From: Syntrophomonas sp.
GTDB taxonomy: Bacteria > Bacillota > Syntrophomonadia > Syntrophomonadales > Syntrophomonadaceae
Length of the DNA stretch: 64,000 nucleotides
Direction of reading: 5' to 3'
NCBI GenBank assembly: GCA_016841425.1
Contig: JAENZE010000015.1
Location: forward strand, 14,032-78,031
Part shown: piece by piece, positions 27,945 to 58,600 of the stretch
Layout of the letters: every line of letters begins with the position of its first letter
Position numbering within the stretch: the stretch's first letter is position 1
The notes under the pieces: generated by a model
What the model was told of the DNA's origin: nothing
What the model saw: the letters and a program-made list of their open reading frames with translations, nothing else
Database searches by the model: none
Position numbers and translations under genes: made by a program

Positions 27945-29366
27945 TTATACATTTTTTAAATATTTATGCATAGCCGCAGCCGCTTTACGACCGGCTCCCA
28001 TTGCTAAAATTACCGTAGCCGCCCCGGTAACTATATCTCCCCCGGCGAATATGCCCATACGTGAAGTCTGACCATCAGAATCAGCCTCTATGGTACCATA
28101 TCTGCCAGTATTTAGTCCCTGAGTGGTTGTTTGAATCAGGGGGTTCGGACTTTGCCCGATTGCGACCACTACGGTGTCAACTGGGATGCCGTATTCGGAG
28201 CCAGGAATATTGATGGGAGAACGACGTCCAGAAGCATCAGGCTCACCCAGCTCACATTTAACGCAAACTAGTTCCCTGACCCAGTTTTGCTCATCTCCCT
28301 GGATTTCAACCGGCTGGGTGAGCAGGTGGAAGTGAATTCCTTCTTCACGGGCATGTTCGACTTCTTCTGCTCGGGCCGGCATTTCTTTCTCCGAGCGGCG
28401 GTAAACAATATATACTTCTTCAGCCCCCAGCCGTTTAGCACAGCGAGCCGAATCCATTGCCACGTTGCCGGCTCCTAGAATGGCTGCTCGTTTACCAATG
28501 CGCACAGGGGTTAAATATTCAGGGAAACGATAACCTTTCATTAAATTAACCCGGGTCAAGAACTCGTTAGCGGAATAAACGCCGTTGAGGTTTTCACCCG
28601 GGATGCCCATGAAGTTAGGAAGGCCTGCTCCAGTCCCAATGAATATGGCCTTATAGCCCTGCTCCATCAGTTCATCCACCTTCATAGTTCGGCCAATTAT
28701 TACGTTAGCTTGAATATCGACTCCCAACTGGCGGACATAATCGATGTCAGCCTGTACGATATCCTTGGGAAGCCTGAATTCTGGAATCCCATACATTAAT
28801 ACTCCGCCCGCGACATGCAGGGCTTCGAAAATAGTAACCGAGTAGCCCAATTTGGCAAGTTCTCCAGCACAGGTCAGCCCGGCGGGGCCGGACCCCACTA
28901 TTGCTACTTTAATGCCGTTGGCGGGAGCTATATCCGGTATCTCAATTGCTCCCTGAGCACGTTCATAATCGGCTGCGAACCGCTCCAAACGACCTATACC
29001 TACCGGTTCGCCTTTCTTGCCGCGCACGCAGTATTGTTCACATTGGCTTTCCTGGGGACAAACCCGACCGCAAATAGCTGGCAGGCTGCTGGTCTCCTTG
29101 ATTTTTAAAGCAGCAGCCACATAGTCCCGCTCCTTAATCTTCTTAATAAAATCAGGGATAGCGATATCTACCGGGCAGCCTTGACGGCATTCTTCAGTTT
29201 TGCATCCAAGGCAGCGGGCGGCTTCAAGCAGCGCGTCTTCTTCGGTGTAGCCCAGAGCTACTTCATTAAAATTATTTACTCGCTCCTTCGCATTTTGGGA
29301 GGGCATAGGTTTCTTCTGAGTATTCTTTATGGCTTTTTTTAGTTCTTCTGCTGATGGCAACTGCAT
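27945..29366 (-). CDS. nfnB: NADH-dependent reduced ferredoxin:NADP+ oxidoreductase subunit B (GltD-like, 2x[4Fe-4S] plus FAD/NAD(P))
   Basis: N-terminal Cys clusters (CLGCKTEECRQGCP, CGRVCPQESQCEQYC), then GSGPAGL and GAGNVAMD dinucleotide folds. Paired with nfnA. ATG 29366 lies 9 nt after GGAGG. Confidence 0.8.
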   Translation of the reverse strand: MQLPSAEELKKAIKNTQKKPMPSQNAKERVNNFNEVALGYTEEDALLEAARCLGCKTEECRQGCPVDIAIPDFIKKIKERDYVAAALKIKETSSLPAICGRVCPQESQCEQYCVRGKKGEPVGIGRLERFAADYERAQGAIEIPDIAPANGIKVAIVGSGPAGLTCAGELAKLGYSVTIFEALHVAGGVLMYGIPEFRLPKDIVQADIDYVRQLGVDIQANVIIGRTMKVDELMEQGYKAIFIGTGAGLPNFMGIPGENLNGVYSANEFLTRVNLMKGYRFPEYLTPVRIGKRAAILGAGNVAMDSARCAKRLGAEEVYIVYRRSEKEMPARAEEVEHAREEGIHFHLLTQPVEIQGDEQNWVRELVCVKCELGEPDASGRRSPINIPGSEYGIPVDTVVVAIGQSPNPLIQTTTQGLNTGRYGTIEADSDGQTSRMGIFAGGDIVTGAATVILAMGAGRKAAAAMHKYLKNV

Positions 29367-30205
29367 CTGCAAACACCTCCTTCGTTATGGTGTTCGAGCA
29401 TGGCTAGCTTTTCTTCCTCGGCGAACATAAGCGATCTCTGGCGAGCCAGGGTCCAATTAATCTTGTGGCCATCAAACTCAGGTCCGTCAACACAAGCAAA
29501 TTTGGTGTTGTTTCCGACTTCGATGCGGCACGCGCCACACATACCAGTACCATCAACCATGATCGGGTTTAAACTAACCACGGTGGAAATACCAACCTTC
29601 TCAGTTACTTCGCAGACTGCCTGCATCATTATCATCGGACCAATTGCTACGACCAGGTCGATTTTCCCTCGCTCATTAATTAGTTCTTTCAAAACTTCGG
29701 TAACCATGCCAGTTCGGCCATACGAACCATCATCAGTCGTGATAATGACTTCAGAACTGACTTTTTTCATCTCTTCTTCCAGGATCAGCAGGTCATGGGT
29801 TCGAGCACCTAAAATGCTTATTACTTCGTTTCCAGCTAATATCATTTCCCTGGCGATAGGATGAATAGGCGCAACCCCAACCCCACCGCCAATCATTATT
29901 ACTCGTCCCAAACGCTCAATATTTGAGGGTTGTCCCAGAGGGCCTGCAAAATCCAACAGGCAGTCTCCTGCTTCCATCGTAGCCATTAGCTCAGTACTTT
30001 TACCAACTACCTGGAAAATAATAGTAATGGTACCTTTTTCCCGGTCAAAGTCGGCGATGGTCAGCGGAATTCTCTCTCCCACTTCGTCCTTGCGCACCAT
30101 TACGAACTGGCCTGCCTGGCAACTGCTGGCAACCAAAGGTGCTTTTACCTCAAACAAGATCATAAGATCATTAACGAGTACCTGCTTCTTGAGTATCTGA
30201 TACAA
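29339..30205 (-). CDS. nfnA: NfnA / sulfide-dehydrogenase-type FAD- and [2Fe-2S]-binding subunit
   Basis: Ferredoxin-NADP reductase-like fold with a C-terminal CGACRI...C cluster. TTG start after GGAGG. Its 3' end overlaps nfnB by 28 nt. Confidence 0.8.
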   Translation of the reverse strand: MYQILKKQVLVNDLMILFEVKAPLVASSCQAGQFVMVRKDEVGERIPLTIADFDREKGTITIIFQVVGKSTELMATMEAGDCLLDFAGPLGQPSNIERLGRVIMIGGGVGVAPIHPIAREMILAGNEVISILGARTHDLLILEEEMKKVSSEVIITTDDGSYGRTGMVTEVLKELINERGKIDLVVAIGPMIMMQAVCEVTEKVGISTVVSLNPIMVDGTGMCGACRIEVGNNTKFACVDGPEFDGHKINWTLARQRSLMFAEEEKLAMLEHHNEGGVCRCSCHQQKN

Positions 30206-30819: not shown

Positions 30820-30835
30820 TGGCATAGTATTTGCA
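30820..30835 (+). promoter_or_regulatory. sigma-54 promoter (-24 TGGCA / -12 TTGCA), operon 1
   Basis: TGGCATAGTATTTGCA has exact consensus spacing and lies 54 nt upstream of ATG 30889. The 21-mer TGGCATAGTATTTGCAATTTA is repeated at 41889. Confidence 0.85.
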
Positions 30836-30888: not shown

Positions 30889-31722
30889 ATGTCGGAAAAG
30901 AAATTTGTCGATCCCTACGGTGTATTCACAACACGCATTGATGTTCCTGACACATTCCCTTCCAATTCAGATTTGTCAGGGAAAAAGGTCTTAGTAACGG
31001 GAGGTGGAAGAGGTCTCGGGGTAGGAATAGCTTTAGCATTTGCCGCTGCAGGTGCAGATGTTGCCGTTTCTGCTAGAACAGAGACTGATGTTAAAGAGAT
31101 TGCTAAGCGTATCGAAGCTAAAGGAGTTAAGGGTCTTGCCGTGGCCGGTAATGTTAAAGATGCTAAAAGTGTTCAAGAGATGATAGCTGCAGTGGTTGCG
31201 GAATTTGGCAGGATTGATGTTCTGGTCAACAATGCAGGCATCAGTCCATGGGTATTGCGCCCCGAAAAGTATACCGAAGAACAGTGGGATGAAATGATGG
31301 GTATTAACCTGAAGGGATGCTGGCTTTGTGCTAAAGAAGCATTTCTGCAATCAATGAAAGATCTTGATAAGGGCAGAATCATTAATACTGGTTCAGCTTT
31401 TGGTATGATTGGTGACCACCGCGTACTTCCTTATTGCTCCAGTAAAGGTGCGGTATTAAACTTTGCCCGGGCACTGGCGATAGACTGGGCTCCGTATAAT
31501 ATTACGGTAAACAACGTAGCTCCAGGATTTTTTGATTCCCCCCTCATCGAAGGCTATAAGAACAACGAAGCATTAGGTCAACAGATTCTGGACCGGGTAC
31601 CGCTGGGCCGCTGGGGAAGGATTGAAGAGCTGGTAGGAACTTATATATTTCTGGCATCAGATGCATCCAGCTTCATAACTGGCCAGACCATTTATGTTGA
31701 TGGCGGTATGACCATAATCTAA
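30889..31722 (+). CDS. short-chain dehydrogenase/reductase (SDR)
   Basis: TGGGRGLGVGIA cofactor motif, NNAG, and the catalytic YCSSK. Confidence 0.9.
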   Translation: MSEKKFVDPYGVFTTRIDVPDTFPSNSDLSGKKVLVTGGGRGLGVGIALAFAAAGADVAVSARTETDVKEIAKRIEAKGVKGLAVAGNVKDAKSVQEMIAAVVAEFGRIDVLVNNAGISPWVLRPEKYTEEQWDEMMGINLKGCWLCAKEAFLQSMKDLDKGRIINTGSAFGMIGDHRVLPYCSSKGAVLNFARALAIDWAPYNITVNNVAPGFFDSPLIEGYKNNEALGQQILDRVPLGRWGRIEELVGTYIFLASDASSFITGQTIYVDGGMTII

Positions 31723-31804
31723 TTCTAAGTACTTTCACAAGCAGAAGAATAATATGCACCAAGTAACAAGGCGAAATATTTAAGGAAAGGCAGGAAATTT
31801 TTAT

Positions 31805-32965
31805 ATGAACTTCGAGTTAACAGAAGAAGAACGATTAATAAAAAATATGACCAGGGTTTTTGCGAATGAAGTGATCATTCCTCAAATTGACGAATCATAT
31901 GAAACCAAAGAGTTTCCTCTTGGAATATTCCAGCAGATGGCTGACCTGGGTTTGATGGGGCTGAAGTATCCGGAAGAGTATGGCGGCAGTGGTGCAAGCA
32001 ATATGGCTTATATAACTGCTATGGAGGAAATAGCCAGGGGTGACTGTGGTGTAGGTCTAACCTGGGGAGTACATCAGACTTTAGGCAGCGTTTCGATCAT
32101 CAAGTTCGGAACTGAACAGCAAAAGGAAAAATATCTCCCCAAGATGGCTGCCGGGGAATGGCTGGGTGCCTTCGGGCTTTCTGAAGCTAATGCCGGTTCG
32201 GATAACCAGGGCATGGAATGTAAGGCCGAGCTTCAGGATGATGGAACATGGAAAGTCAATGGCACCAAGATGTTCATCAGCAACACCGGCACTCCCTTGA
32301 GCTTCGGGGGAATCTTCCTGTTTGTTACTGGCAAAACTCCAAGCGGAAAAAAGGAATTTACATCATTTATCGTAGATAAAGATACACCTGGATACAGCAT
32401 TGGAACGAAGTTTAAGAAAATGGGTTTTGACTGGGGCGACACCCGGGAGCAGATCTTCGAGGATTGTATTCTTTCCGATGAGCAGCGTTTAGGACCACGC
32501 GGTAACGGCTTTAAACAGATCATGGATACTCTTGATGCTGCCAGAATCGGATATGCTGCTAACAGCTTGGGTATGGCCGTACGTTGCTATGATGAAGCAC
32601 TAAAATATGGTAATGAACGCAAGCAGTTTGGACAAACCATTAACAGTTTCCAGGTTACCTCCTTTAAATTAGCCAATATGGCTACTAAAATCGAGCTGGC
32701 CAGACTTATGGTTCAAAAAGCAGCCTGGATGCGTGACAACAATATACCGCATACCAAAGAAGCGGCTATGGCCAAATATTATGCCTCTAAAATCTGTATG
32801 GAGGTAGCCAGCGAAGCGGTTCAGATCCATGGTGGCTATGGATTCTCGGAAGAATACCCGGTTTGCCGTTATTTCAGATATGGCAAGATGATGGAGATTG
32901 GTGAAGGTACCAATGAGATCAATCAGATAGTTATTTCTCGTCACCTTGGTATTGCTGGACTATAG
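31805..32965 (+). CDS. acyl-CoA dehydrogenase
   Basis: Full-length ACAD layout (GLSEANAGSD ..., a C-terminal catalytic Glu region IGEGTNEI). Confidence 0.9.
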   Translation: MNFELTEEERLIKNMTRVFANEVIIPQIDESYETKEFPLGIFQQMADLGLMGLKYPEEYGGSGASNMAYITAMEEIARGDCGVGLTWGVHQTLGSVSIIKFGTEQQKEKYLPKMAAGEWLGAFGLSEANAGSDNQGMECKAELQDDGTWKVNGTKMFISNTGTPLSFGGIFLFVTGKTPSGKKEFTSFIVDKDTPGYSIGTKFKKMGFDWGDTREQIFEDCILSDEQRLGPRGNGFKQIMDTLDAARIGYAANSLGMAVRCYDEALKYGNERKQFGQTINSFQVTSFKLANMATKIELARLMVQKAAWMRDNNIPHTKEAAMAKYYASKICMEVASEAVQIHGGYGFSEEYPVCRYFRYGKMMEIGEGTNEINQIVISRHLGIAGL

Positions 32966-32984
32966 ATGGAGAGGAGAGAGTCAC

Positions 32985-34307
32985 TTGAAAAGACCGTACA
33001 GGTATACTCATGACTGGAAAGAGGAATATAACAGAAAACTGGTATCTGCAGAAGATGCGGTTAAGGTAGTGAAGTCATTTGATCGGGTTTTTCTGCCTGG
33101 GTTTGGGGGAGATCCTCCAACTCTTTTAAATGAGTTAGCCAAACGTGGCAATGAGTTAGATGCAGTCGAGATTGTCAGCTGCAACCCGGTTATTCCATTT
33201 GAACACAGCAAACCGGAATACAACGGAATATTTATTGATAATCCGTGGTTTGTTGGTGCTGGAGCACGCAAAGCGGTTATGGAAGGAAGAGGAACCTATA
33301 CTCCAGTTAACTTTGGACATTATGCAAGATTCATGAAAGATGTCGAAATCAATGTGGGTATGATCATGGTTTCGCCTCCTGACAATTTCGGATACATGAG
33401 CTTTGGAATTATGACTGGTTATTCCCGCGCTATTATCGAAGAAGCAGATATCGTGATTTTGCAAATATCCGAACAACAGCCTAGATGTCTCGGAGACTGC
33501 TTTGTTCACGTTTCTGAAGTTGATTATATTGTAGAGGCTAACGATTCTATTCCAGCATTTTCAAAAGCACAAGCCTCAGAAATCGATAAAACGATGGCTG
33601 AAATTATTGCAGCAGAAATTGAAGATGGATCTACTATTCAGTTAGGAGTGGGGGGGACACCGAATACTGTAGGAATGCTTCTGGCCAGCAAACGCGAACT
33701 CGGTGTTCATTCGGAAATGATGATTGATGCATTTATTGATCTGCTGGAAGCTGGAGCTATCACCAATACCAAGAAGACCATGCATCCTGGCAAGTTCATC
33801 TGCACCTTCGCTGGTGGTACCCGTAAACTGTATGACTGGATGGATAATAACCCCCTGGTTGAAAATCATCCGGTTGGCTACACCAATGATCCTTATATAA
33901 TCGGCCAGCAATATAAGCAGGTCTCCATTAACGCTACCTTAGAGGTCGATTTGACTGGACAAGCCTGTTCAGAAAGTATTGGAACACGTCAATACAGCGG
34001 TTTTGGCGGACAGCTGGACTTTGTCAGAGGCTGTATGTTATCTCCCGGCGGCAAATCATTCTTAGTGGTACCTTCCACAGCTAACACCAAGGATGGAGTG
34101 GTATCCAGTATTGTGCCAACACTTAAACCCGGCGCAGGAGTGACAACACCCCGAGGTGACATACATCATGTAGTTACTGAATACGGTATGGTCAACTTGA
34201 GAGGCAAAAGTGTCAGACAGAGGGCCATGGATTTAATATCCATTGCTCATCCTGATTTCCGTGCGGAATTGAAAAAAGAAGCCCAACGCCTGTTGATGAT
34301 GCCCTAG
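32985..34307 (+). CDS. acetyl-CoA hydrolase/transferase family CoA-transferase (4-hydroxybutyrate / butyryl-CoA:acetate type)
   Basis: The family-typical blocks are present (GVGGTPN, GVHSEM, GFGGQLDF, VTEYG). The TTG start at 32985 lies 4 nt downstream of GGAGAGGAGAG. Confidence 0.8.
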   Translation: MKRPYRYTHDWKEEYNRKLVSAEDAVKVVKSFDRVFLPGFGGDPPTLLNELAKRGNELDAVEIVSCNPVIPFEHSKPEYNGIFIDNPWFVGAGARKAVMEGRGTYTPVNFGHYARFMKDVEINVGMIMVSPPDNFGYMSFGIMTGYSRAIIEEADIVILQISEQQPRCLGDCFVHVSEVDYIVEANDSIPAFSKAQASEIDKTMAEIIAAEIEDGSTIQLGVGGTPNTVGMLLASKRELGVHSEMMIDAFIDLLEAGAITNTKKTMHPGKFICTFAGGTRKLYDWMDNNPLVENHPVGYTNDPYIIGQQYKQVSINATLEVDLTGQACSESIGTRQYSGFGGQLDFVRGCMLSPGGKSFLVVPSTANTKDGVVSSIVPTLKPGAGVTTPRGDIHHVVTEYGMVNLRGKSVRQRAMDLISIAHPDFRAELKKEAQRLLMMP

Positions 34308-34708
34308 TTGTTGGGAACTTACAAATAAAATCCTTATTCAAATAATGATATGCAGCCATCTCGAAAATGTATGGTTGTGATCGCTTGGTCCACCAGGAGT
34401 TTAATCTGAAGACGGGGATAGGTTTCCTATCTGGGAAAATAATATATACAGAATTTATTGATTAAACGGACCAAATTAAATTTGAGGGAGAGGGGTGAGA
34501 GACGTTCACAAATCAATGCGATGTAAAATACCTGCTAACGGTAAATAAAGGAGGGATACACCAATAAATGGAGGTTATCGCTAATAATACAACTAGAGCC
34601 CGGTAGGGCAGGATATAAGTTAAGAGCGTAGCAAGTATTGAAATTCGAAATTGGTTTGCTTTGAATCAGGATAGGGTTCGCTGAAAAATGAAAGGGAGGA
34701 AGCTATCT

Positions 34709-36064
34709 ATGGAGAGAACTGTAACTCAGGAATTAGCCCGGTTTGCTGTAAATCTTAAATACGAGGACATTCCCCTTAATGTAATAGACAAGGTGAAAAC
34801 CTGTATTTTGCATGGTACTTGTATCGGCCTGGCAGGAATGGATATTATATTTGGCAAAATTGCCCGGGCTCAGATCAGTAAAGCTCCCACTGCAATTGGA
34901 AATGGGTCTGTAACACTCCTTGGAGATGGTGCCAAGGTAGCAGTCATGGATGCAGCCTTTGCCACCAGTGTTTTGTATCATGGCAGGGTTCAGGAAGATA
35001 CCCATGGCACAACTCATATAGGAGCTATCAGCATTCCTCTGGCAATTGCCCTCGCCGAAATGAACGGTCAGACTGGAAAGGATGTTATTACTGCCCTTGC
35101 CGCAGCCTACGAGGTAGGAGGTGCACTGGGCAAAGATTACACTGCCCTGACAACTCCCAGAGGGTGGAGAGCCAGCTCTATTTATGGCATTTTTAGTGCT
35201 GCCACCGTTGCCGGTGTTTTAATGGGACTTAATGAAGAGGAGATGACTAATGCATTAGGCCTGGCCAGTGCATTTGCATTTGGAACTACGGAGAGTTTTA
35301 AAGCCGCAACTATGGAATGGCGGTTCGAAGTTGGACTGGCCGCAAGAAATGGTTATCTGGCAGCAGTATTGGCCAAAGAGGGTGCACTAGCCGCGGCTAA
35401 TGCAATGGAAGGCGACATGGGTTTCTTCAGAGCTTTTGCGGGAACTCGTGAGAACCTTGATAAGATCACCGAAAATCTCGGCAAGGTGTGGGAGACCAAC
35501 AACGTAACCTTCAAGCTTTATCCGGTGTGTGCATTCAACCAGACCCAGGTTATAAACAGCATCTCATTGGCGTCAGAAAATGACCTTGATCCGGCTAAGA
35601 TTACTTCAATAGAAGTTAATATGAGTGAATATGAGGCTAATTATCCCGGGCAGATGAATTGGGGCCCCTTTTCTGCCCATGCCGGAACATTAATGAGCGC
35701 ACCGTTTTGTGTAGCAGCTTCCTTATTAAATAGAAGATTGACTTTATCTGATCTGCATCAGTTTGAGGATTCTACTATTCTGGAGCTGGTCAACAAAACC
35801 AAAATAATTCCCAATCCCGAAATTGGATTCCTTTGTTCACGCATTGTGGTTACCCTGGAAGATGGAACGGTAGTAGAACGTCCTATGAATGTTACAGAAC
35901 AGTACTATAATTTGGATTTTGCCAGGGATGTTGAAATGATGAGGACTATGAAGGACGAAATTGCAATTTCGGATGAGAAATTGGAAGATCTTATCGCTAT
36001 TGTAGGCACTCTAGAACAGCAAGAAAACATGAACGCATTTGTCAATGCAACACTAGTAGATTAA
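34709..36064 (+). CDS. MmgE/PrpD family protein (2-methylcitrate dehydratase superfamily, specificity unknown)
   Basis: N-terminal ELARFAVNLKYEDIP, and a length and layout typical of PrpD-family proteins. ATG follows GGGAGGAAG. Confidence 0.8.
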   Translation: MERTVTQELARFAVNLKYEDIPLNVIDKVKTCILHGTCIGLAGMDIIFGKIARAQISKAPTAIGNGSVTLLGDGAKVAVMDAAFATSVLYHGRVQEDTHGTTHIGAISIPLAIALAEMNGQTGKDVITALAAAYEVGGALGKDYTALTTPRGWRASSIYGIFSAATVAGVLMGLNEEEMTNALGLASAFAFGTTESFKAATMEWRFEVGLAARNGYLAAVLAKEGALAAANAMEGDMGFFRAFAGTRENLDKITENLGKVWETNNVTFKLYPVCAFNQTQVINSISLASENDLDPAKITSIEVNMSEYEANYPGQMNWGPFSAHAGTLMSAPFCVAASLLNRRLTLSDLHQFEDSTILELVNKTKIIPNPEIGFLCSRIVVTLEDGTVVERPMNVTEQYYNLDFARDVEMMRTMKDEIAISDEKLEDLIAIVGTLEQQENMNAFVNATLVD

Positions 36065-36107
36065 TATGGGTCAGGTTCCTGAAATAGCTTGGTAGGAGTG
36101 ATAACTT

Positions 36108-36635
36108 GTGGGTTTGTATCAATTTGAAAACTATGTACCCAGGGTCGACTCATCGGCATACGTTCATCCGGAGGCAGTACTAATTGGTGATGTCAGTATC
36201 TCCAGGAATTGTTATATTGGACCGGGTGCATCGATACGGGCTGATTGGGGGAGCATCACTATAGGACCGGGTTCTAATATTCAGGACCGAGTTGTTATTC
36301 ACGTTAAACCAGAACACTCAGTAATCCTTGGAGCTAATTCACACATTGGACATGGTGCTATCCTGCATGGACCATCTCTGGGATTCCATGTTTTTATAGG
36401 CATGGGTGCCATCATAATGGACGGAGCAGAATTGGGTGACAATTGCTGCATAGCTGCAGGGACTCTTATCCCTGGTGGAATGAAAATACCAGCTAACAAA
36501 CTTGTTAAAGGCGTTCCCGGCAGGATTGTTTCAGACGTATCCTTGGAAATGGCGGCAGCATTAGAAACAGCAACAAAGCACTATCAAACCCTGACTGAAC
36601 GGTGCCTTAAGGGAATGAGAAGAGTCAACTTTTAG
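36108..36635 (+). CDS. gamma-carbonic-anhydrase-like / PaaY-CaiE hexapeptide-repeat protein
   Basis: Left-handed beta-helix repeats. The N-terminus YVHPEAVLIGDVSI resembles PaaY/CaiE. GTG start 9 nt after AGGAG. Confidence 0.75.
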   Translation: MGLYQFENYVPRVDSSAYVHPEAVLIGDVSISRNCYIGPGASIRADWGSITIGPGSNIQDRVVIHVKPEHSVILGANSHIGHGAILHGPSLGFHVFIGMGAIIMDGAELGDNCCIAAGTLIPGGMKIPANKLVKGVPGRIVSDVSLEMAAALETATKHYQTLTERCLKGMRRVNF

Positions 36636-36690
36636 TTAAACAGTTGGTGGGGAATTAATAATATTGTTATTTATAGAGGAGGTTTTACAT

Positions 36691-38022
36691 TTGTCTACTA
36701 AAGTTGCGGAAAAAGCTTGGGGATATCGCCACATAATACTGCTGGTAGTATGGGGATTATATCTGATAAATTACCTGGATAGGATAGCAGTTCTGACATT
36801 TCTGCCTTATATTAAAGAAGATCTAAACCTAACTACGGTTCAGGTCGGGTGGTTAGGATCAATATTCTTCTTTGGATATGCTTTAGCCCAATTTTCAGCA
36901 GGTTTCTTAAGTGATAAAATTGGTGCTAAAAAAACCATGGGCATTGCCATAACGGTCTTCACTGGAGTTACCTTTTTGACTGGTTTAGTTCAGAATTTCA
37001 CACAATTCATTATACTGCGTCTTGGTCTGGCTCTGGGTGAAGGTCACCATTATACCCCTGCAATTAGAGCACTTGCCGACTGGATGCCTAACCATGAGAA
37101 AGGAAGAGCCAGTGGTTTCTTTGCTACTGTTTTTGGATTCGCTCCTATGCTGACTCCATTAATAGTAACCTCTATTGCAGTCGCATGGTTTGGTGGTGCA
37201 TGGAGACCGGTATTCTTCTGCCTGGCAGTACCCGGTGTTATTGGAATATTCATACTTTGGAAGTTTATGCATAATACACCGAGCGAAGGACTTGCGAAAG
37301 GCGTTGTAAGACAAGGCGAATACGATATGATCGTAGATTCTATTGGCCAGGATCAAAAAATCACTGGTGTTAACTACAGTACCAAATTGATCTTTGGAGA
37401 TAGTAAATTTTATTTATATTCCATTGCCTGGTTCATGCAGCTGATGATTTACTGGGGAATGACCACCTGGGTGGCATTTTTCCTGGTAACTGCGCATGGA
37501 TTTAATATCAAAACTATGGGTATCCTGGCAGGTGTTCCCTACGCTGCCGCCATTTTGGCCCAATTTTTGGGTGGGATTGTTGCGGATAAATGGTTCCAGG
37601 GACGCCCCCGCATTGTCTGCGTTATAGCTTTCCTGGGCTGCATCCCATCTCTGTATTTCCTGGGTCAGGTGCCCTCGGGCAGCATAACTCCATTGGTAAT
37701 ACTGTTGGCACTTTGCGGGTTCTTCATTAACTTCAACTGGGGTGTTATCCAGTCATATCCTTCTTATAGATATCCCAGAGAAATCGTAGGACGCGCTATG
37801 GGTATTGCCAACGGGGTTGGTCAGTTTGGTTCCTTTGTTTCCCCTATGATTGCTTCATACCTGATCATTACCAATGCCGCTGGTGTTAGTGACTTTTCCC
37901 GGGTTTTCTTCTTCTGGGCAATAGCTGCAGCAGTAGCAGCAACCGCATTCTTCTTCCTGAAGGAAGAAGCTATCGATGCAGAACCATACAAAATTGTTAG
38001 CGAGAAGAAATTAGCTTCCTAA
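36691..38022 (+). CDS. MFS transporter (anion:cation symporter-like)
   Basis: 12 TM segments and a DRIAVLTFLP ... SDKIGAKKT loop motif. TTG 36691 follows GAGGAGG. Confidence 0.8.
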   Translation: MSTKVAEKAWGYRHIILLVVWGLYLINYLDRIAVLTFLPYIKEDLNLTTVQVGWLGSIFFFGYALAQFSAGFLSDKIGAKKTMGIAITVFTGVTFLTGLVQNFTQFIILRLGLALGEGHHYTPAIRALADWMPNHEKGRASGFFATVFGFAPMLTPLIVTSIAVAWFGGAWRPVFFCLAVPGVIGIFILWKFMHNTPSEGLAKGVVRQGEYDMIVDSIGQDQKITGVNYSTKLIFGDSKFYLYSIAWFMQLMIYWGMTTWVAFFLVTAHGFNIKTMGILAGVPYAAAILAQFLGGIVADKWFQGRPRIVCVIAFLGCIPSLYFLGQVPSGSITPLVILLALCGFFINFNWGVIQSYPSYRYPREIVGRAMGIANGVGQFGSFVSPMIASYLIITNAAGVSDFSRVFFFWAIAAAVAATAFFFLKEEAIDAEPYKIVSEKKLAS

Positions 38023-38042
38023 ACGCAGTTTGATATCCTGTT

Positions 38043-38090
38043 ATGTATTGTGCAGCTAAAAGTGCTGCACAATACATATCTTTGTATTTA
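38043..38090 (+). terminator. rho-independent terminator ending operon 1
   Basis: Perfect 14-bp stem ATGTATTGTGCAGC / GCTGCACAATACAT followed by a T-rich tail. Confidence 0.8.
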
Positions 38091-38130
38091 GGAAGGAAAT
38101 AATAGAAAAGGGACGAGAGGTGTAATACTA

Positions 38131-38358
38131 ATGTCAGAATTAATATTTTCTTCATCATTTGTAGTCGCTACAGTTCTTTTAATTACTTCTGTAGTGGTAG
38201 TCTTTGTTTGGGATAGGAAGTACATTACTAGAACCTGTGATCAATGTAATCGTGCTAATTTTATTCCTAAACGGGATCCTTTTTTTAATTGTAAATATTG
38301 TGGGTATGATTTGGATGCCAGAGCTAAGGAAGCATTGCTTAAAGAAAGCATTGGATAG
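38131..38358 (+). CDS. small membrane-anchored zinc-ribbon protein (75 aa)
   Basis: One N-terminal TM helix, then CDQC ... CKYC. A GAGAGG-type RBS lies upstream. Confidence 0.5.
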   Translation: MSELIFSSSFVVATVLLITSVVVVFVWDRKYITRTCDQCNRANFIPKRDPFFNCKYCGYDLDARAKEALLKESIG

Positions 38359-38472
38359 CAGTAATAATTATCATTCTAGAATAAACTTATTTTGCTTGTA
38401 AATTGACGGAATAGCTGTAATATTATAATTAAATGTCGATTGTTGAAAACAGGTATTAAGCGGGGTGGAAAA

Positions 38473-40503
38473 ATGCTAAGTGCTATTGATTTTAGGGATG
38501 CTACCTACCCAACATTTACTCCAGATGTACCAGTATATGAAGCAATAGACATACTAAGTGATGTAAATGAATCAATTGGGTTTGTTGTTCAGGATGGCAA
38601 ACATTTAGGAACCTTCAGGCTGACAAGGAATAAAATTGAACAACTACCAGCTAACTCTCGTGTTTCCGATATCATTATTCGTAATTATCCTACCATTTTA
38701 CCAGATACCCCCATTTACCAGCTCGGTTTAAAGAGTCTGCTTCCGGTGCCTCTTGTGAGTGCGCAGGGATTTTTCTATGGGGTAATCCAACCTGCTACAG
38801 TATTTTCCTTCTTTCAGATGTTTGGTGCAACACAATACGGAGAAATTCATAATCAACTGAGCGTTGGGGTGATCTTTGAAAGTGCGGAAGGATTAATCAC
38901 ACAGATCAACAGCACGGCCATTAAACTGCTTGGTGTTGAAGCTAAAGATGTTCTGTTTCAACCTCTAGCCCAGGTTATTCCAGAAGTCGATCATGATGAA
39001 TTGTGCAAGATACGAAAAAATATACAGAGGCATGGAAAGGTAATTGATCTGAAAAGAAATATGGTGGAATTAAAAGGGCGTCAAATAGGATGGATGACTT
39101 TATTGGAGGACATCTCCAGCCTGGTTAATGTTACAGCTGAGCTGTCAGGTTTCCATAATCTCACGGAGGAGATTGAAACAATTTTTCGGTATGCCAGTGA
39201 AGGACTGTGTATAATCAATAATAATGGCGTGATTTTGAAGAGTAATGATGCTTTATGTAATGTTATGGGAGCGCCTCAAGATCATATTGAAAATCGACAT
39301 GTAAAAGAATTGAAAATGGATGGAATTATTGATAAATCGATTGCTGAGACAGTATTATCTAAAAAAGCCGAAGTAACCATCACCCAAAAATCAAAAAAGC
39401 AAAATCAATGGTTAACTACTGGAAGGCCAGTTTTTAATAAAGAAGGGAATATAATCTATGTAGTTTCAACTGCCAGAGACGTAATTAAGACGAATAGAAT
39501 GTATCGAGCGGCCGGGGTAAAGCGGGATAAGTACACGTTTCTTGACATTGAAACCAGGCAGGTACTTGATAAGGTTGGCATCATAGGTGAAAGCAAAAGT
39601 ATGTCCAACATTATAGGTGTGGTTTCCCGAATTGCTAATTCTTCCGCAACAGTACTTATTCAAGGTGAGTCTGGTACGGGGAAAGAATTGATTGCCAGGC
39701 TCATTTATGAACTAAGCGACAGGAGATTCGGTGGAAAATTTATAGGCGTGAACTGTGGAGCCTTGCCCAGAGAACTTCTGGAGGCTGAACTCTTCGGATA
39801 TGTGGGAGGAGCTTTTACCGGTTCCAAAAAAGAAGGTAAAAAAGGCCTTTTTGAACAAGCCAACAAAGGGACGATATTCCTGGATGAAATCGGTGATATG
39901 CCTTATGACTTACAGGTTAAACTTTTGAAAGCCGTTGAATATGGGGAAATCGCCAAGGTTGGAAGTGCTGAAACGATAAAGGTAGATACCAGAATCATTG
40001 CTGCTACCAATCAAAATTTACAGAGTATGGTTGCCGATGGAACCTTCCGGGAAGATCTTTTTTATCGGCTCAATGTAATCCCCATATTTGTACCGCCGTT
40101 AAGGGAGCGGCGAGAAGATATAGTAAGCCTGTACGCTTACTTCATTGATATGTTTAACAAAAAGTATAATAGCGACAAAGAGTTTTCTGTTAGAGCTCAA
40201 AATATACTGCAGAACTATAAATGGCCCGGAAATATCCGGGAAATGAAGAATCTGGTAGAAAGGTTGGTTCTTACAACGGAAGCTGATATTATATGTGAGG
40301 AAGATTTACCGATTCAAATACTTGAGACACGGGAAATCTTTGAAAAACAACCAGAATGCTCGCTGAGGCAAGCAATGGAAGATGTTGAACGTCGTATTAT
40401 TTTAGATGCCTACAATCGTTATGGCAGCACTTATAAGGTTGCCGAGGCATTGGATATCAGTCAAACATCCGTTGTTCGAAAACTGAATAAATATCTTCAA
40501 TAG
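38473..40503 (+). CDS. sigma-54-dependent transcriptional activator (CBS pair, two PAS, AAA+ sigma-54 interaction domain, Fis-type HTH)
   Basis: Walker A GESGTGKE, a GAFTGS sigma-54 contact loop, Walker B FLDEIG and a C-terminal HTH (STYKVAEALDISQTSVVRKL). Confidence 0.9.
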   Translation: MLSAIDFRDATYPTFTPDVPVYEAIDILSDVNESIGFVVQDGKHLGTFRLTRNKIEQLPANSRVSDIIIRNYPTILPDTPIYQLGLKSLLPVPLVSAQGFFYGVIQPATVFSFFQMFGATQYGEIHNQLSVGVIFESAEGLITQINSTAIKLLGVEAKDVLFQPLAQVIPEVDHDELCKIRKNIQRHGKVIDLKRNMVELKGRQIGWMTLLEDISSLVNVTAELSGFHNLTEEIETIFRYASEGLCIINNNGVILKSNDALCNVMGAPQDHIENRHVKELKMDGIIDKSIAETVLSKKAEVTITQKSKKQNQWLTTGRPVFNKEGNIIYVVSTARDVIKTNRMYRAAGVKRDKYTFLDIETRQVLDKVGIIGESKSMSNIIGVVSRIANSSATVLIQGESGTGKELIARLIYELSDRRFGGKFIGVNCGALPRELLEAELFGYVGGAFTGSKKEGKKGLFEQANKGTIFLDEIGDMPYDLQVKLLKAVEYGEIAKVGSAETIKVDTRIIAATNQNLQSMVADGTFREDLFYRLNVIPIFVPPLRERREDIVSLYAYFIDMFNKKYNSDKEFSVRAQNILQNYKWPGNIREMKNLVERLVLTTEADIICEEDLPIQILETREIFEKQPECSLRQAMEDVERRIILDAYNRYGSTYKVAEALDISQTSVVRKLNKYLQ

Positions 40504-40549: not shown

Positions 40550-41365
40550 TTAAATAATACTGTGCCAGGTATGGTTAATTTTCTTAGCCAGGCCAATCCT
40601 ATCCATATTTATAATATTAATGTTTTTTTCTGATTTTTCAATTAACACCCGTTCCTCTTTGTTCAGGCAACGGATATTTTCTCCATCCAGGGATATATCT
40701 GTAGTAAATTCACAGTATGAGGATATGGTCACTTGAGTGTCTGAATTTACTATCAGAGCTCGGCCAGAGGACAAGAGGGGACAAATAGGTGTGAGAACCA
40801 GCGCTTTAACATTTTCAGCCAGCACCGGACCACCTGCTGAATATGAATAAGCTGTTGATCCGGCAGGTGTTGCGCAGATCAGTCCATCCCCCCTATAGAT
40901 GGAGCAGGTCTGATTATCGATGGAAATACCTATGGTGATTGGACGCACGGCCTTAGATCTAATAACCACCTCGTTAAGAGCCACACCCAACTCTACCCGC
41001 TGCCCTCCGCTTATAAGCTCAGCCTTAATCAGTAGGTATTTATCGAGAGTATATTGAAACTTTATGAGTTTGTCCAAAGCCATTGACCAATCATCTGGTT
41101 CTATGCTGCTTAAAAATCCAATTTTACCCAGATTAACTCCTAATAGAGGAATTCCCGTCCCGGCCAGGTGATGGGCAGTTTTTAGAATAGTTCCATCTCC
41201 CCCTAAAACTAAAATTATATCATTACTGCTAAGATCGATATGGTCACTTATTTTACGACTTTCCAAGGCAGATACTATAGCTCCTTTATCTGCCAGGTCT
41301 TCACTAAAACGCTGGCTCAGTTGATATGCTCGTAAGTCGCTTTTATGGATTATCAAGACTTTCAC
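40550..41365 (-). CDS. nadK: NAD kinase
   Basis: GGDGT motif, the NE...I region and the ATPAGSTAYSYSAGGP motif. GTG start. Confidence 0.9.
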   Translation of the reverse strand: MKVLIIHKSDLRAYQLSQRFSEDLADKGAIVSALESRKISDHIDLSSNDIILVLGGDGTILKTAHHLAGTGIPLLGVNLGKIGFLSSIEPDDWSMALDKLIKFQYTLDKYLLIKAELISGGQRVELGVALNEVVIRSKAVRPITIGISIDNQTCSIYRGDGLICATPAGSTAYSYSAGGPVLAENVKALVLTPICPLLSSGRALIVNSDTQVTISSYCEFTTDISLDGENIRCLNKEERVLIEKSEKNINIINMDRIGLAKKINHTWHSII

Positions 41366-41888: not shown

Positions 41889-41904
41889 TGGCATAGTATT
41901 TGCA
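41889..41904 (+). promoter_or_regulatory. sigma-54 promoter (-24/-12), operon 2
   Basis: The same TGGCATAGTATTTGCA, extended to an identical 21-mer, lies 53 nt upstream of ATG 41957. Confidence 0.85.
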
Positions 41905-44016: not shown

Positions 44017-44114
44017 AAACAAATAAAATCTATCCAGCTTTGTTGTCCAGATCATCCAATCATATGCAAGACTGACTAATGATACAACTTAGCTGGTTGG
44101 AGAGGAGGAAGGCC

Positions 44115-44897: not shown

Positions 44898-44916
44898 TAG
44901 TAAAGGAGTAAAACAA

Positions 44917-46170: not shown

Positions 46171-46259
46171 ACAACATTAATCTCATTAAAATTCCATAAT
46201 AAGTTGAGGTCAATTCTTGAAGGGAAGGAATTTAATGAAATGTGCTTAGGAGGATGGAA

Positions 46260-47642: not shown

Positions 47643-47820
47643 GAATCAACTAGATTCTAAATAGATAATAATAGCAAAGAGCGACATTGTATAACGGTAG
47701 GTATCCTTGATCTTATATTTGTTATAGAGCAAATCTAGAATGGGTGCCTATCAAATAGCAACACAAGTGAGAGTATCGAAACAACAGGATTGTATATGCA
47801 AAATGGAAGGAGAATATTTC

Positions 47821-57795: not shown

Positions 57796-57807
57796 AGGAG
57801 GGTGTTT

Positions 57808-58161: not shown

Positions 58162-58193
58162 TATACAAATCCTACTATAGAGGGGTAATGCAA

Positions 58194-58586: not shown

Positions 58587-58600
58587 TGGGGGGAATTATA

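Follow-up and report, generated by a model that had tools for sequence, protein, structure and literature searches.

The window analysed here, the whole stretch of 64,000 nucleotides of Syntrophomonas sp. DNA, contains two operons on the + strand, operon 1 and operon 2, with the gene of a sigma-54 activator sitting between them (Table 1). A preliminary description of this DNA had defined operon 1 as a block of six genes from 30889 to 38358. All six are present as uninterrupted + strand ORFs spanning 30889-38022, and each assignment was verified. The end at 38358, in contrast, takes in a 75-aa ORF past the terminator, for which a Pfam search gave no match.

Table 1. Features of operon 1, operon 2 and their flanks (positions in the window).
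Feature	Position	Strand	Basis
NfnAB-like pair (GltD-like + DHODB-FeS/NAD-binding subunits)	27945..30205	-	Pfam domains of L001 orthologues, 83-90% identical
Sigma-54-like site of NfnAB-like pair	30271-30286	-	1 mismatch here
Sigma-54 -24/-12 promoter, operon 1	30820..30835	+	TGGCATAGTATTTGCA, exact consensus match
SDR oxidoreductase (FabG / gluconate 5-dehydrogenase-like)	30889..31722	+	Pfam adh_short_C2 1.6e-60
Acyl-CoA dehydrogenase, Bcd (butyryl-CoA dehydrogenase) type	31805..32965	+	Complete set of ACAD domains
Family-I CoA-transferase, 4-hydroxybutyrate / butyryl-CoA:acetate type	32985..34307	+	Pfam AcetylCoA_hydro N + C
Intra-operon spacer, 400 nt	34308..34708	+	No feature assigned
MmgE/PrpD-family protein	34709..36064	+	Pfam MmgE_PrpD N + C domains
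Left-handed beta-helix protein, PaaY/CaiE/gamma-carbonic-anhydrase-like	36108..36635	+	Hexapep 1e-19
MFS transporter, anion:cation symporter type	36664..38022	+	MFS_1 1e-68
Terminator-like hairpin closing operon 1	38042..38078	+	15-bp stem, then T-rich tail
Conserved 75-aa ORF, one TM helix + CxxC...CxxC	38131..38358	+	Same position in L001, L084, L085
Sigma-54 enhancer-binding activator (PAS, AAA+, HTH)	38440..40503	+	Sigma54_activat 2e-66, PAS_9, HTH_50
NAD kinase paralogue	40550..41365	-	NCBIfam NAD kinase models up to 1e-53
Sigma-54 promoter of NAD kinase gene	41465-41480	-	Exact match
Sigma-54 promoter, operon 2	41889..41904	+	Exact match
E1 beta, lipoamide-dependent dehydrogenase complex	41958..42925	+	NCBIfam PRK09212 383 bits vs cut-off 321
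Zn-dependent alcohol dehydrogenase, (R,R)-2,3-butanediol dehydrogenase-like	42964..44016	+	PDB 6ie0 5.6e-75
Crotonase-type enoyl-CoA hydratase	44079..44897	+	PDB C. acetobutylicum Crt 9e-69
E2 dihydrolipoamide acyltransferase	44863..46170	+	Top NCBIfam match PDH E2, 312 bits vs cut-off 445
E3 dihydrolipoyl dehydrogenase	46242..47642	+	TIGR01350 547 bits vs cut-off 409
E1 alpha subunit, probable 319-aa form	47740..48780	+	TIGR03182 319 bits vs cut-off 394
Lipoate-protein ligase LplA	49329..50312	+	TIGR00545 423 bits vs cut-off 280

The SDR matches FabG and 2-deoxygluconate 3-DH in the PDB (~1e-49) and scores 247 bits against NCBIfam PRK08213 (cut-off 279). For the acyl-CoA dehydrogenase (ACAD), C. 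difficile Bcd leads the PDB matches (5ol2, 1e-93; also 4l1f and 1buc) and AcrC those in NCBIfam (367 bits vs a cut-off of 640). The CoA-transferase had been assigned to the 4-hydroxybutyrate type, and the searches place it in the 4-hydroxybutyrate / butyryl-CoA:acetate type: its top PDB match is a 4-hydroxybutyrate CoA-transferase (3e-111), and its top NCBIfam match is TIGR03948, butyryl-CoA:acetate CoA-transferase (385 bits vs 675). Its ORF opens at 32946, the 440-aa form being the one that agrees with the closest relative, L001. The 400-nt spacer that follows is 87% identical to L001 and is kept only in part in L084 and L085; it yielded no Rfam match and no terminator, and its fold z-score is -0.45. 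The MmgE/PrpD-family (PrpD-like) protein has 451 aa, the length of its relatives, and its listed ORF opens 7 codons upstream. The hexapeptide protein scores 171 bits for PaaY (cut-off 320), 154 for CaiE (305) and 130 for gamma-CA (250); since it falls under both equivalog cut-offs, its PaaY/CaiE-like designation stands at the family level and not beyond. In L086 it is reduced to a 67-aa remnant. The MFS transporter is closest to subfamily TIGR00893, of the D-galactonate-transporter type, and is 57-58% identical to the MFS genes adjoining the PrpD-like gene in L086 and the E1 module in L093. As noted before, etfAB genes are absent from the window (all ORFs of at least 150 aa were scanned), and no thiolase or lyase was found among its ORFs.

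Operon 2 encodes a lipoamide-dependent dehydrogenase complex together with its own lipoylation gene. The start codon of E1beta is preceded by an RBS, and its PDB matches are PDH and BCKDH E1beta (~1e-89). Homologues of E1alpha at 57-96% identity have a length of 319 aa and occur frequently in anaerobe metagenomes, and the L001 orthologue of E2 (90% identical) contains lipoyl, E3-binding and 2-oxoacid_dh catalytic domains. For both E1 subunits, PDH and BCKDH structures score equally and homologues are variously named 'pyruvate' or 'acetoin', so that acetoin-type chemistry is not established. The Zn-dependent alcohol dehydrogenase (Zn-ADH) makes the complex look more acetoin-type than generic 2-oxoacid, since its second PDB match (4.6e-51) comes far behind (R,R)-butanediol dehydrogenase; its NCBIfam scores are all under the cut-offs. 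The crotonase (ECH) also matches M. sedula 3-hydroxypropionyl-CoA dehydratase (1e-67, PDB) and has both catalytic Glu motifs; by its sequence it looks like an ordinary short-chain hydratase. On the - strand, the name NfnAB is our reading of a domain pair. An oxaloacetate-decarboxylase-type Na+-decarboxylase operon lies 18 kb downstream.

An exact -24/-12 element stands 54 nt upstream of the SDR start, in line with the sigma-54 control originally proposed for operon 1. The promoters of operons 1 and 2 are identical over 21 nt. In the window, 15 sigma-54 matches with at most 1 mismatch were found against 5.8 expected, and none of 100 shuffles reached at least 15. All four sites of Table 1 are exact in L001, with unchanged positions, including that of the NfnAB-like pair; the NAD kinase site is retained in a 1-mismatch version in the rearranged L085. 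Identical promoters before both operons and the activator gene between them argue for one regulon. The activator, whose top NCBIfam match is PrdR (416 bits vs a cut-off of 795), probably turns on both operons; we infer its action on these particular promoters, and a search of the two upstream regions for a common activator-binding repeat found none.

PrpD-family subgrouping showed that none of the known subgroups fits the PrpD-like protein. It has no NCBIfam equivalog, the PrpD model reaching 30 bits (cut-off 950), and PrpD itself, CAD, IDS-epimerase and methylsuccinate isomerase were all rejected. The clade retains H103, K269, T98 and Y312, of which H103 and K269 form the catalytic pair of the family. 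The equivalents of IDS D88, Y145, H150 and K198 are V/A94, T/S149, R154 and W204; of the six residues that coordinate carboxylate throughout the family three are substituted, the epimerase Tyr is missing, and R93, Q95 and Y134 are added as invariant residues. Judged from these alignments, the protein belongs to an unstudied MmgE/PrpD branch in which the catalytic His/Lys is retained and the substrate pocket appears rebuilt. Relatives at 50-60% identity occur in differing contexts (TRAP + MBL-fold; hydantoinase-like; 2-hydroxyacyl-CoA-dehydratase-like), so that the clade may not be isofunctional.

Synteny with the operon 1 block extends to a Syntrophomonas sp. MAG (proteins 88-98% identical) and to two metagenome contigs (PrpD-like protein 89% identical). 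Across 80 loci, counted at species level and drawn from many phyla, the PrpD-like gene keeps the company of E1, ECH, E2, ACAD and ligase genes. E1alpha/beta lies within 10 kb of it in 51 of the 80 loci (38 of 51 when only full-length loci are counted), and ECH, E2, ACAD and a CoA ligase are then usually there too. E1beta and ECH occur together in 47 loci, with contiguous E1beta-ECH-E2 in 28. The most frequent neighbour is an AMP-ligase (45 loci; 4-nt overlap in Azospirillum), and an acid transporter typically adjoins, MFS or TRAP in Firmicute relatives and ABC in proteobacteria. Aerobic Alpha-, Beta- and Gammaproteobacteria, Chloroflexota and Terriglobia hold E1alpha-E1beta-ECH-E2-ACAD-ligase-PrpD together; at 25-43% identity to that of operon 1, the ACADs of other phyla's clusters may be analogues rather than orthologues. 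In two Thermodesulfobacteriota MAGs (L013 and L014), E1alpha, E1beta, Zn-ADH, SDR, ECH, E2, two ACADs, the PrpD-like protein and a CoA ligase are encoded in one same-strand array, the AMP-ligase taking the place of the CoA-transferase. This array indicates that operons 1 and 2 serve one pathway, and together with the identical promoters it carries their connection beyond adjacency.

Our preferred explanation, to which we give slightly less than an even chance, is that operons 1 and 2 are the two halves of one regulon for breaking down a single imported organic acid. The anion-type MFS would import the acid, and the PrpD-like protein would carry out a proton transfer on the free acid, most likely an epimerisation or isomerisation, yielding the form accepted by the CoA-activating enzyme. 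Such a pairing with CoA activation and transport is suggested by the AMP-ligase as commonest neighbour, by the adjoining transporters and by the methylsuccinate isomerase (Msi) precedent. The CoA-transferase would then form the thioester, the ACAD and the crotonase would install a 3-hydroxyl, and the Zn-ADH and/or the SDR would act on an adjacent hydroxyl or oxo group. C-C cleavage may fall to the lipoamide complex (E1alpha/beta, E2, E3) in lieu of a thiolase or lyase, a role supported by the lack of both in the window. Uptake, CoA activation and oxidation of an organic acid, as previously proposed, are supported overall. The direction of the oxidation is less certain, since the ACAD and the crotonase are near clostridial Bcd and Crt, whose homologues usually work reductively in anaerobes. 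This reductive habit, the lack of EtfAB nearby and the ordinary-looking hydratase count against our explanation.

The likeliest specific version, which on its own we still regard as doubtful, starts from an acid with a gamma-oxo or gamma-hydroxy group, such as those of the levulinate / 4-hydroxyvalerate type. A CoA-bound alpha-hydroxyketone (3-hydroxy-4-oxoacyl-CoA) would be cleaved by the complex in the manner of acetoin dehydrogenase, giving acetyl-CoA or another acyl-CoA plus 3-oxopropanoyl-CoA. The acetoin-type reading is suggested by a Zn-ADH closest to (R,R)-butanediol dehydrogenase, by an own lipoylation gene in an anaerobe, by the ECH gene embedded between E1 and E2 genes, and by sigma-54 AcoR-type control, which is classical for aco operons (PMC3543383). 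The type of CoA-transferase, the HpaB/AbfD-family gene adjoining the E1 module in L093 (beside an MFS 58% identical to that of operon 1), and the MBL-fold hydrolases and hydantoinase A/B-type enzymes adjoining PrpD-like genes in related loci point to a gamma-substituted substrate. Against this scheme, the PrpD-like protein is left without a defined reaction.

Two co-regulated functions could also explain the locus: acetoin / 2,3-butanediol utilisation by operon 2 (BDH, E1/E2/E3, LplA, AcoR-like activator) and, in operon 1 plus crotonase, a butyrate-type reductive branch for reducing equivalents. Acetoacetyl-CoA reductase, Crt, Bcd and butyryl-CoA:acetate CoA-transferase would form this branch, NfnAB and NAD kinase would balance NADPH, and accessory parts would be left to the PrpD-like, hexapeptide and MFS proteins. 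The nearest matches of the Zn-ADH, ACAD, ECH and CoA-transferase fit this arrangement, as do the sigma-54 sites at the NfnAB-like and NAD kinase genes and the aco cluster of Pelobacter carbinolicus, in which AcoR and dedicated lipoylation genes are accompanied by unexplained acyl-CoA enzymes (PMC3543383). We nonetheless hold it to be unlikely: neutral substrates leave nothing for a PrpD-family enzyme or an anion importer to do, thiolase and EtfAB are missing from the window, and the grouping in aerobic phyla and the single array of L013 and L014 are left unaccounted for. Improbable too is an alkylsuccinate/methylsuccinate-type route like Msi/Ict/Mcd, in which the PrpD-like protein would epimerise a 2-substituted succinate, the CoA-transferase activate it, the ACAD form a substituted fumaryl-CoA and the crotonase hydrate it, a pyruvate/2-oxobutyrate-type 2-oxoacid being released to PDH-like E1/E2/E3. 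Characterised MmgE/PrpD enzymes use a 1,4-dicarboxylate backbone in every case, and Msi adjoins ACAD and CoA-transferase genes (PMC12290011); E1beta exceeds the cut-off of the NCBIfam PDH E1beta subfamily, and the anion-type transporter, the TRAP DctPQM transporters beside some relatives and the downstream Na+-decarboxylase operon are in keeping with such substrates. Yet the carboxylate-coordinating residues and the epimerase Tyr are altered as described, neither the window nor the recurrent neighbour families showed a citramalyl-CoA-type lyase (CitE/HpcH), the crotonase with both hydratase Glu is not hydratase/lyase-like, and the Zn-ADH and SDR are left without a role.

We consider rather remote an oxidative route in which the PrpD-like protein would racemise an imported 2-hydroxy acid, SDR/Zn-ADH would give the 2-oxoacid, E1/E2/E3 would convert it to an acyl-CoA one carbon shorter, and ACAD, crotonase and SDR would perform beta-oxidation, the CoA-transferase recycling CoA or admitting free acid. 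It would suit the most constant pairing, that of the PrpD-like protein with E1alpha/beta, and the similarity of E1/E2 to 2-oxoacid complexes. It would also suit the setting of those relatives found next to an FAD-linked oxidase, ETF and 2-hydroxyacyl-CoA-dehydratase-like genes; systems of this kind are stereospecific. However, E2 would already make the thioester, which would render the tight ligase-PrpD coupling of most loci superfluous; many proteobacterial clusters contain no dehydrogenase able to form the 2-oxoacid, and the scheme offers no reason for the embedding of ECH between the E1beta and E2 genes. Furthermore, strict anaerobes normally oxidise 2-oxoacids by other enzymes, the ferredoxin-dependent 2-oxoacid oxidoreductases.

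The block had been described as one without a known pathway. Orthology to a characterised cluster was sought as the refuting case, and no such cluster matching the whole block was found in NCBIfam 2026, the PDB, the RefSeq annotation of Azospirillum operons (among them D9621_RS26145-26175) or the literature searched. The PrpD-like branch is unstudied and recurs with these partner genes across many phyla, so that it is probably the marker of a breakdown pathway not yet described. Its parallel in the PrpD family is methylsuccinate isomerase, which has the free acid as its sole substrate form and supplies a stereoselective CoA-transferase, the ACAD coming next (PMC12290011). Msi serves itaconate CoA-transferase as the PrpD-like protein would serve the CoA-activating enzyme under our preferred explanation.

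The six open reading frames of operon 1 lie at the coordinates claimed for them in the preliminary description, uninterrupted on the forward strand, and Pfam and NCBIfam upheld their assignments. The same description ended the block at 38358. The six genes are indeed there, and the stretch past the terminator-like hairpin is a separate conserved ORF of 75 aa, kept between the transporter and activator genes in the closest relative, a Syntrophomonas sp. MAG (L001), and in two metagenome contigs (L084 and L085). Its product, with one predicted membrane helix and a CxxC...CxxC motif, had no Pfam match and could be a partner of the sigma-54 activator. The CoA-transferase ORF had been listed from 32946; the 440-aa form used here agrees with its relatives. 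The hexapeptide family of the PaaY/CaiE-like protein stands, while its closer naming does not: scores stay below the NCBIfam equivalog cut-offs (PaaY 171 bits against 320, CaiE 154 against 305), and there are no paa or cai genes near its gene. A scan of all window ORFs of at least 150 aa, in DNA of about 42% G+C, found no thiolase or lyase and, as had been stated, no etfAB: the acyl-CoA dehydrogenase stands without any ETF-family gene in the 64-kb window.

The untranslated spacer of 400 nt that separates the CoA-transferase gene of operon 1 from the PrpD-like gene is 87% identical in L001 and shortened in L084 and L085. A structured RNA in it was ruled out, since it gave no Rfam match and no stable fold (z-score -0.45) and is poorly conserved in these two contigs; nor does it hold a terminator.

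Coordinates of features in the window and at related loci in other genomes
Feature	Coordinates	Strand	Remarks
1187-aa protein	20226-23789	-	GH130 domain
NfnAB-like pair	27945-30205	-	divergent from catabolic operons
Sigma-54 site, NfnAB-like pair	30271-30286	-	
SDR	30889-31722	+	Pfam/NCBIfam
Acyl-CoA dehydrogenase	31805-32965	+	Pfam/NCBIfam; closest to clostridial Bcd, 1e-93
Family-I CoA-transferase	32985-34307	+	closest to 4-hydroxybutyrate CoA-transferases, 3e-111
Spacer	34308-34708		within operon 1
MmgE/PrpD protein (PrpD-like)	34709-36064	+	451 aa, as in all relatives
Hexapeptide PaaY/CaiE/gamma-carbonic-anhydrase-like protein	36108-36635	+	Pfam/NCBIfam
MFS transporter, anion type	36664-38022	+	Pfam/NCBIfam
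Terminator-like hairpin	38042-38078	+	3' of MFS gene; 15-pair stem, T-rich tail
75-aa ORF	38131-38358	+	
NAD kinase paralogue	40550-41365	-	divergent from catabolic operons
Sigma-54 site, NAD kinase	41465-41480	-	
Operon 2	from 41958 (true start of E1beta)	+	E1beta, Zn-ADH, crotonase, E2, E3, E1alpha, LplA
DUF6125 protein	50367-51113	+	after LplA
Sigma-54 site	51581-51596	-	exact
MBL-fold hydrolase	52688-53458	-	
Sigma-54 site, MBL-fold hydrolase	53538-53553	-	exact
Na+-translocating decarboxylase operon	56419-59749	+	alpha carboxyltransferase without biotin domain, 119-aa membrane subunit, 132-aa biotin carrier, beta subunit
Hydantoinase A/B with PrpD-like, L002	10001-16003		
Hydantoinase A/B with PrpD-like, L003	10001-15937		
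Hydantoinase A/B with PrpD-like, L007, L009-L012, L030			
E1-BDH-ECH-E2-E3 module, L092	6599-18092		anaerobe MAG
E1-BDH-ECH-E2-E3 module, L093	4983-17751		anaerobe MAG
DUF6125 homologue, L093	8603-9130		47% identical
E1-BDH-ECH-E2-E3 module, L094	3866-18973		anaerobe MAG

Operons 1 and 2 form one sigma-54 regulon. The SDR start is preceded at 54 nt by an exact sigma-54 element, TGGCATAGTATTTGCA, the operon 2 promoter is identical to it over 21 nt, and the gene of an enhancer-binding activator (PAS, AAA+, HTH) is placed between the two operons. The window contains 15 matches to the element where 5.8 are expected, a number that none of the shuffles reached. Beyond the promoter core, no upstream repeat common to both promoters was found that could serve as the activator-binding site. 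The block is syntenic in L001, with proteins 88-98% identical and four exact sites, each placed as in the window: before the SDR operon, the E1beta operon, the divergent NAD kinase gene and a divergent pair that, by its domains, looks like NfnAB. Synteny extends to L084 and L085, where the PrpD-like protein is 89% identical. L085 is rearranged so that the NAD kinase gene now adjoins the SDR operon; the site upstream of the SDR gene is still exact there, and that of the NAD kinase gene has one mismatch. Because the sites of the NfnAB-like pair and the NAD kinase gene are exact in L001, and the NAD kinase link survives the rearrangement in L085, our results suggest that the regulon also covers NADP(H) supply. 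Its design is unusual in that dedicated genes for an NAD kinase and an NfnAB-like pair stand beside the two operons, each with a sigma-54 site of its own.

Two further exact sites were observed on the reverse strand. The one at 51581-51596 is followed on that strand by no ORF of at least 50 aa before the end of the DUF6125 gene, and may be an orphan, an antisense or a small-RNA promoter. The other precedes the MBL-fold hydrolase gene. In L084 a homologue of it (50% identical) is found close to the activator gene, and MBL-fold genes unrelated to it adjoin PrpD-like genes in three loci (L003, L087 and L089).

We mined gene neighbourhoods with a profile of the PrpD-like clade, which retrieved 80 species-level loci in GTDB genomes, 51 of them with full flanks. 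Comparison of the window proteins with these loci by tblastn and de novo clustering of all neighbour ORFs agreed: the PrpD-like gene recurs with E1alpha/E1beta, crotonase (ECH), E2, acyl-CoA dehydrogenase and a CoA-activating enzyme, which together constitute one conserved gene association. E1alpha or E1beta lies within 10 kb of the PrpD-like gene at 51 of the 80 loci (38 of the 51 with full flanks), E1beta and crotonase occur together at 47, and E1beta-ECH-E2 are contiguous on one strand at 28. The commonest neighbour is an AMP-forming CoA ligase (45/80 loci), which replaces the CoA-transferase. Two Thermodesulfobacteriota MAGs (L013 and L014) carry E1alpha, E1beta, Zn-ADH, SDR, ECH, E2, two acyl-CoA dehydrogenases, PrpD-like and ligase genes as one same-strand array; most of the proteins are 42-67% identical to those of the window, the SDR and the acyl-CoA dehydrogenases only 28-37%. 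The usual proteobacterial order is E1alpha-E1beta-ECH-E2-ACAD-ligase-PrpD-TetR, and on plasmid p3 of Azospirillum brasilense Sp7 the ligase gene overlaps the PrpD gene by 4 nt. The taxa comprise Bacillota, Chloroflexota (Thermogemmatispora), Thermodesulfobacteriota, Alpha-, Beta- and Gammaproteobacteria and Terriglobia. Operons 1 and 2 thus serve one pathway. Contig P0004, considered as a further link between PrpD-like and E1alpha genes, was rejected, no link being present there.

Furthermore, the PrpD-like protein is coupled to transport and CoA activation. In Firmicute relatives of 52-60% identity its gene directly adjoins a transporter gene, in the order LplA-LipA-PrpD-(hexapeptide remnant)-MFS in L086, with an MFS protein 57% identical to that of the window, or PrpD-TRAP(DctPQM)-MBL-fold hydrolase in L087 to L089. 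Hydantoinase A/B-type genes adjoin it in Paenibacillus, Jeotgalibacillus, Thermogemmatispora and Streptomyces, mostly with E1/E2; the hydantoinase B subunit has an Acetone_carb_G-like region, and the Paenibacillus loci also carry molybdenum-hydroxylase and Moco-biosynthesis genes. The module E1alpha-E1beta-BDH-like-(SDR)-ECH-E2-E3-LplA/LipA is also common in anaerobe MAGs with no PrpD gene in view. Its neighbours there are HGD-D/BcrAD radical-dehydratase-like and HpaB/AbfD-family genes, TRAP or MFS transporters (one MFS protein being 58% identical to that of the window) and CoA ligases or transferases. Neither the dehydratase-like neighbours (L089, L092 and L094) nor the HpaB-family gene (L093) reached a curated equivalog.

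To which subgroup of its family does the PrpD-like protein belong? Our assignment places it outside every characterised one. It reached no curated equivalog, its sole NCBIfam match being PrpD_hiGCgrampos at 30 bits against a cut-off of 950, and its nearest sequences are those of B. subtilis 'IRG1', iminodisuccinate (IDS) epimerase and cis-aconitate decarboxylase (CAD). The clade profile gave partial matches to PrpD structures (1e-10 to 1e-12) and matched CAD at 1e-43. Genes of the citrate-synthase and isocitrate-lyase families, which would supply methylcitrate synthase and methylisocitrate lyase, were absent among window ORFs of at least 150 aa. Across 24 sequences, down to 31% identity, the clade keeps the catalytic histidine H103 together with K269, H91, T98 and Y312, and adds R93, Q95 and Y134, all invariant. 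The active-site set of CAD we take to be D93, T97, H103, H159, K207, K272, H277 and Y318; against it T98, H103, K269 and Y312 are kept, and D93, H159, K207 and H277 are replaced by V/A94, R154, W204 and C274. H103 of CAD is named in PMC12290011, which also gives H85, D88, H99, Y145, H150, K198 and K266 for IDS epimerase. Here H91, H103 and K269 are kept, and D88, Y145, H150 and K198 correspond to V94, T149, R154 and W204, positions where the clade holds V/A94, T/S149, an invariant R154 and W204. The residues of methylsuccinate isomerase (Msi), H88, E91, H102, Y148, H152, K202 and K266, are described as equivalent to the IDS-epimerase set (PMC12290011), and four of these seven positions differ when compared through the IDS-epimerase alignment, not through the Msi sequence. 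Curated scores and active-site residues hence rule out PrpD, CAD, IDS epimerase and Msi as the identity of the protein. The residues kept and replaced point to a protein that retains the proton-transfer machinery of the family in a binding pocket predicted to be altered.

According to PMC12290011, MmgE/PrpD homologues, mostly of unknown function, occur in about one fifth of sequenced prokaryotic species, and the family shares six conserved residues that coordinate a 1,4-dicarboxylate. In the window, one such clade, with its active site rebuilt, is represented by a clean and regulated case.

In operon 2, the structure most similar to the Zn-ADH is, by a wide margin, that of (R,R)-2,3-butanediol dehydrogenase (6ie0, 5.6e-75; next structure, 4.6e-51). 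For the crotonase, the match to C. acetobutylicum Crt reached 9e-69. Its sequence includes both catalytic (hydratase) Glu motifs and its nearest structures are ordinary crotonases, so a hydratase/lyase role was ruled out. E1beta matched pyruvate and branched-chain dehydrogenase structures (PDH and BCKDH) equally well, and no solved AcoA/AcoB structure was among the matches. Subtyping E1 by the names of E1alpha homologues was dropped, since these mix pyruvate and acetoin and are not decisive. The DUF6125 protein encoded after LplA may be a pathway member, as its homologue in L093 lies beside the same module and an orthologous MFS gene. Elsewhere in the window we observed a four-gene Na+-translocating decarboxylase operon of the oxaloacetate-decarboxylase type, and a 1187-aa protein in which only a C-terminal GH130 mannoside phosphorylase domain was recognised, some 890 N-terminal residues having no assignment.

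We tentatively favour, at somewhat less than even odds, a general scheme in which the PrpD-like protein would prepare an imported acid, the CoA-transferase would activate it, the acyl-CoA dehydrogenase would desaturate it and the crotonase would hydrate the product, after which Zn-ADH and/or SDR would adjust the intermediate and the lipoamide complex would cleave it. By analogy with Msi, the preparation would most likely be an epimerisation or isomerisation. The cleavage looks acetoin-like because the alcohol dehydrogenase is butanediol-dehydrogenase-like, the E1 and E2 genes enclose that of the crotonase, the complex has its own lipoylation gene in an anaerobe, and control is of the AcoR type (PMC3543383). 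A more specific version, which employs every enzyme, we regard as rather unlikely: a gamma-oxo or gamma-hydroxy acid would yield a 3-hydroxy-4-oxoacyl-CoA, which is an analogue of acetoin bound to CoA and would be split into an acyl-CoA and 3-oxopropanoyl-CoA. It fits the 4-hydroxybutyrate-type transferase and the AbfD-family, MBL-fold and hydantoinase-type neighbours found elsewhere, and also a 1,4-dicarboxylate-binding pocket that has been remodelled at one of its carboxylate sites.

Of the Msi-type gene context, an acyl-CoA dehydrogenase and a CoA-transferase adjoin the PrpD-like gene; the transferase is of family I. An alkylsuccinate-type route ending in a PDH-like step is improbable, given that there is no lyase and that the pocket is changed. 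E1alpha, E1beta, E2 and E3 stand together under a sigma-54 activator of the AcoR type, as in acetoin dehydrogenase systems; use of acetoin or butanediol with a butyrate-type electron sink would account neither for the cluster in aerobes nor for the same-strand arrays of L013 and L014, and we give it equally little credence. A 2-hydroxy or 2-oxo acid route with a racemase, which leaves the ligase coupling and the embedded crotonase unexplained, is slightly less probable still.

The cluster is CoA-dependent acid catabolism, of a known kind, in which the enzyme combination has no assignment and the PrpD clade is uncharacterised. No characterised cluster orthologous to the whole block was found in NCBIfam release 20, RefSeq annotation, the PDB or the literature, where our search on PrpD/MmgE gene clusters returned no paper describing it. 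The Azospirillum and Thermodesulfobacteriota operons bear only generic RefSeq/NCBIfam names and no pathway, one of their ligases barely reaching the unnamed equivalog PRK06145. Solving the pathway would give names to generically annotated clusters, possibly for lactone-, lactam- or keto-acid-type compounds, and would bring the PrpD family a fifth type of reaction or class of substrate. It could also show a lipoamide complex performing the C-C cleavage of a beta-oxidation-like sequence, a possible new use. The most far-reaching version, for which we see only a slim chance, is a widespread undescribed route with an acetoin-dehydrogenase-type complex instead of thiolase. Its target would be a CoA-bound alpha-hydroxyketone (3-hydroxy-4-oxoacyl-CoA) formed from gamma-oxo or gamma-hydroxy acids by a CoA-activating enzyme, an acyl-CoA dehydrogenase and a crotonase. 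Gamma-lactones and gamma-lactams would join the route after ring opening of the lactonase or hydantoinase type, and a new MmgE/PrpD class would prepare free 1,4-keto-acids, not 1,4-dicarboxylates.

Among known systems, mmgABCDE-yqiQ of Bacillus subtilis is a Firmicute operon joining beta-oxidation enzymes to an MmgE/PrpD-family protein; unlike it, the present cluster has no methylcitrate synthase or methylisocitrate lyase, and its protein scores 30 bits against 950 for the PrpD model. The clostridial butyryl-CoA module consists of Hbd, Crt, Bcd-EtfAB and But. Our acyl-CoA dehydrogenase, crotonase and CoA-transferase are closest to Bcd, Crt and But/4-hydroxybutyrate CoA-transferases, but here EtfAB and thiolase are missing, an SDR takes the place of Hbd, and the genes are spread over two sigma-54 operons with a lipoamide complex. 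The levulinate operon lvaABCDEFG of Pseudomonas putida, with its sigma-54 activator LvaR, is summarised in PMC6692424. It resembles ours in that sigma-54 activates the breakdown of a short keto acid by way of CoA esters and that an SDR, an enzyme of the acyl-CoA dehydrogenase family and transporters take part; a lipoamide complex and the PrpD-like protein stand here in place of the LvaA/LvaB kinase pair. No phosphotransferase-family gene, as in that pair acting on 4-hydroxyvaleryl-CoA, occurs in operons 1 or 2, which excludes a 4-phosphoacyl-CoA route.

The itaconate/methylsuccinate cluster of Pseudomonas aeruginosa and Cupriavidus necator comprises the CoA-transferase Ict, the acyl-CoA dehydrogenase Mcd, Msi, Ich and Ccl (PMC12290011). 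Its PrpD-family protein is the methylsuccinate isomerase of Gonner et al., which works on the free acid only and feeds a stereoselective CoA-transferase and then the acyl-CoA dehydrogenase (PMC12290011). Both clusters combine a PrpD-family gene with a CoA-transferase and an acyl-CoA dehydrogenase for an imported acid, and the catalytic His and Lys are kept. On the other hand, the transferase here belongs to family I (4-hydroxybutyrate type) and that of the itaconate cluster to family III, the counterparts of Msi E91, Y148, H152 and K202 are substituted in our clade, and the window contains no MaoC-type hydratase and no CitE/HpcH-type (citramalyl-CoA) lyase; it has instead the lipoamide E1/E2/E3, a crotonase and the butanediol-dehydrogenase-like enzyme. 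The acetoin systems with AcoR, acoABCL-acoR of Bacillus subtilis and the acoABCSL cluster of Pelobacter carbinolicus (PMC3543383), likewise place E1alpha/E1beta, E2 and E3 under a sigma-54 activator with a butanediol-dehydrogenase-type gene in the cluster. In an anaerobe they share dedicated lipoylation genes, and the Pelobacter cluster also has acyl-CoA-active genes of unclear role. Contrary to these systems, the order here runs from E1beta to E1alpha with an embedded crotonase, and the complex is tied to an acyl-CoA dehydrogenase, a CoA-activating enzyme, the PrpD-like protein and an anion transporter.
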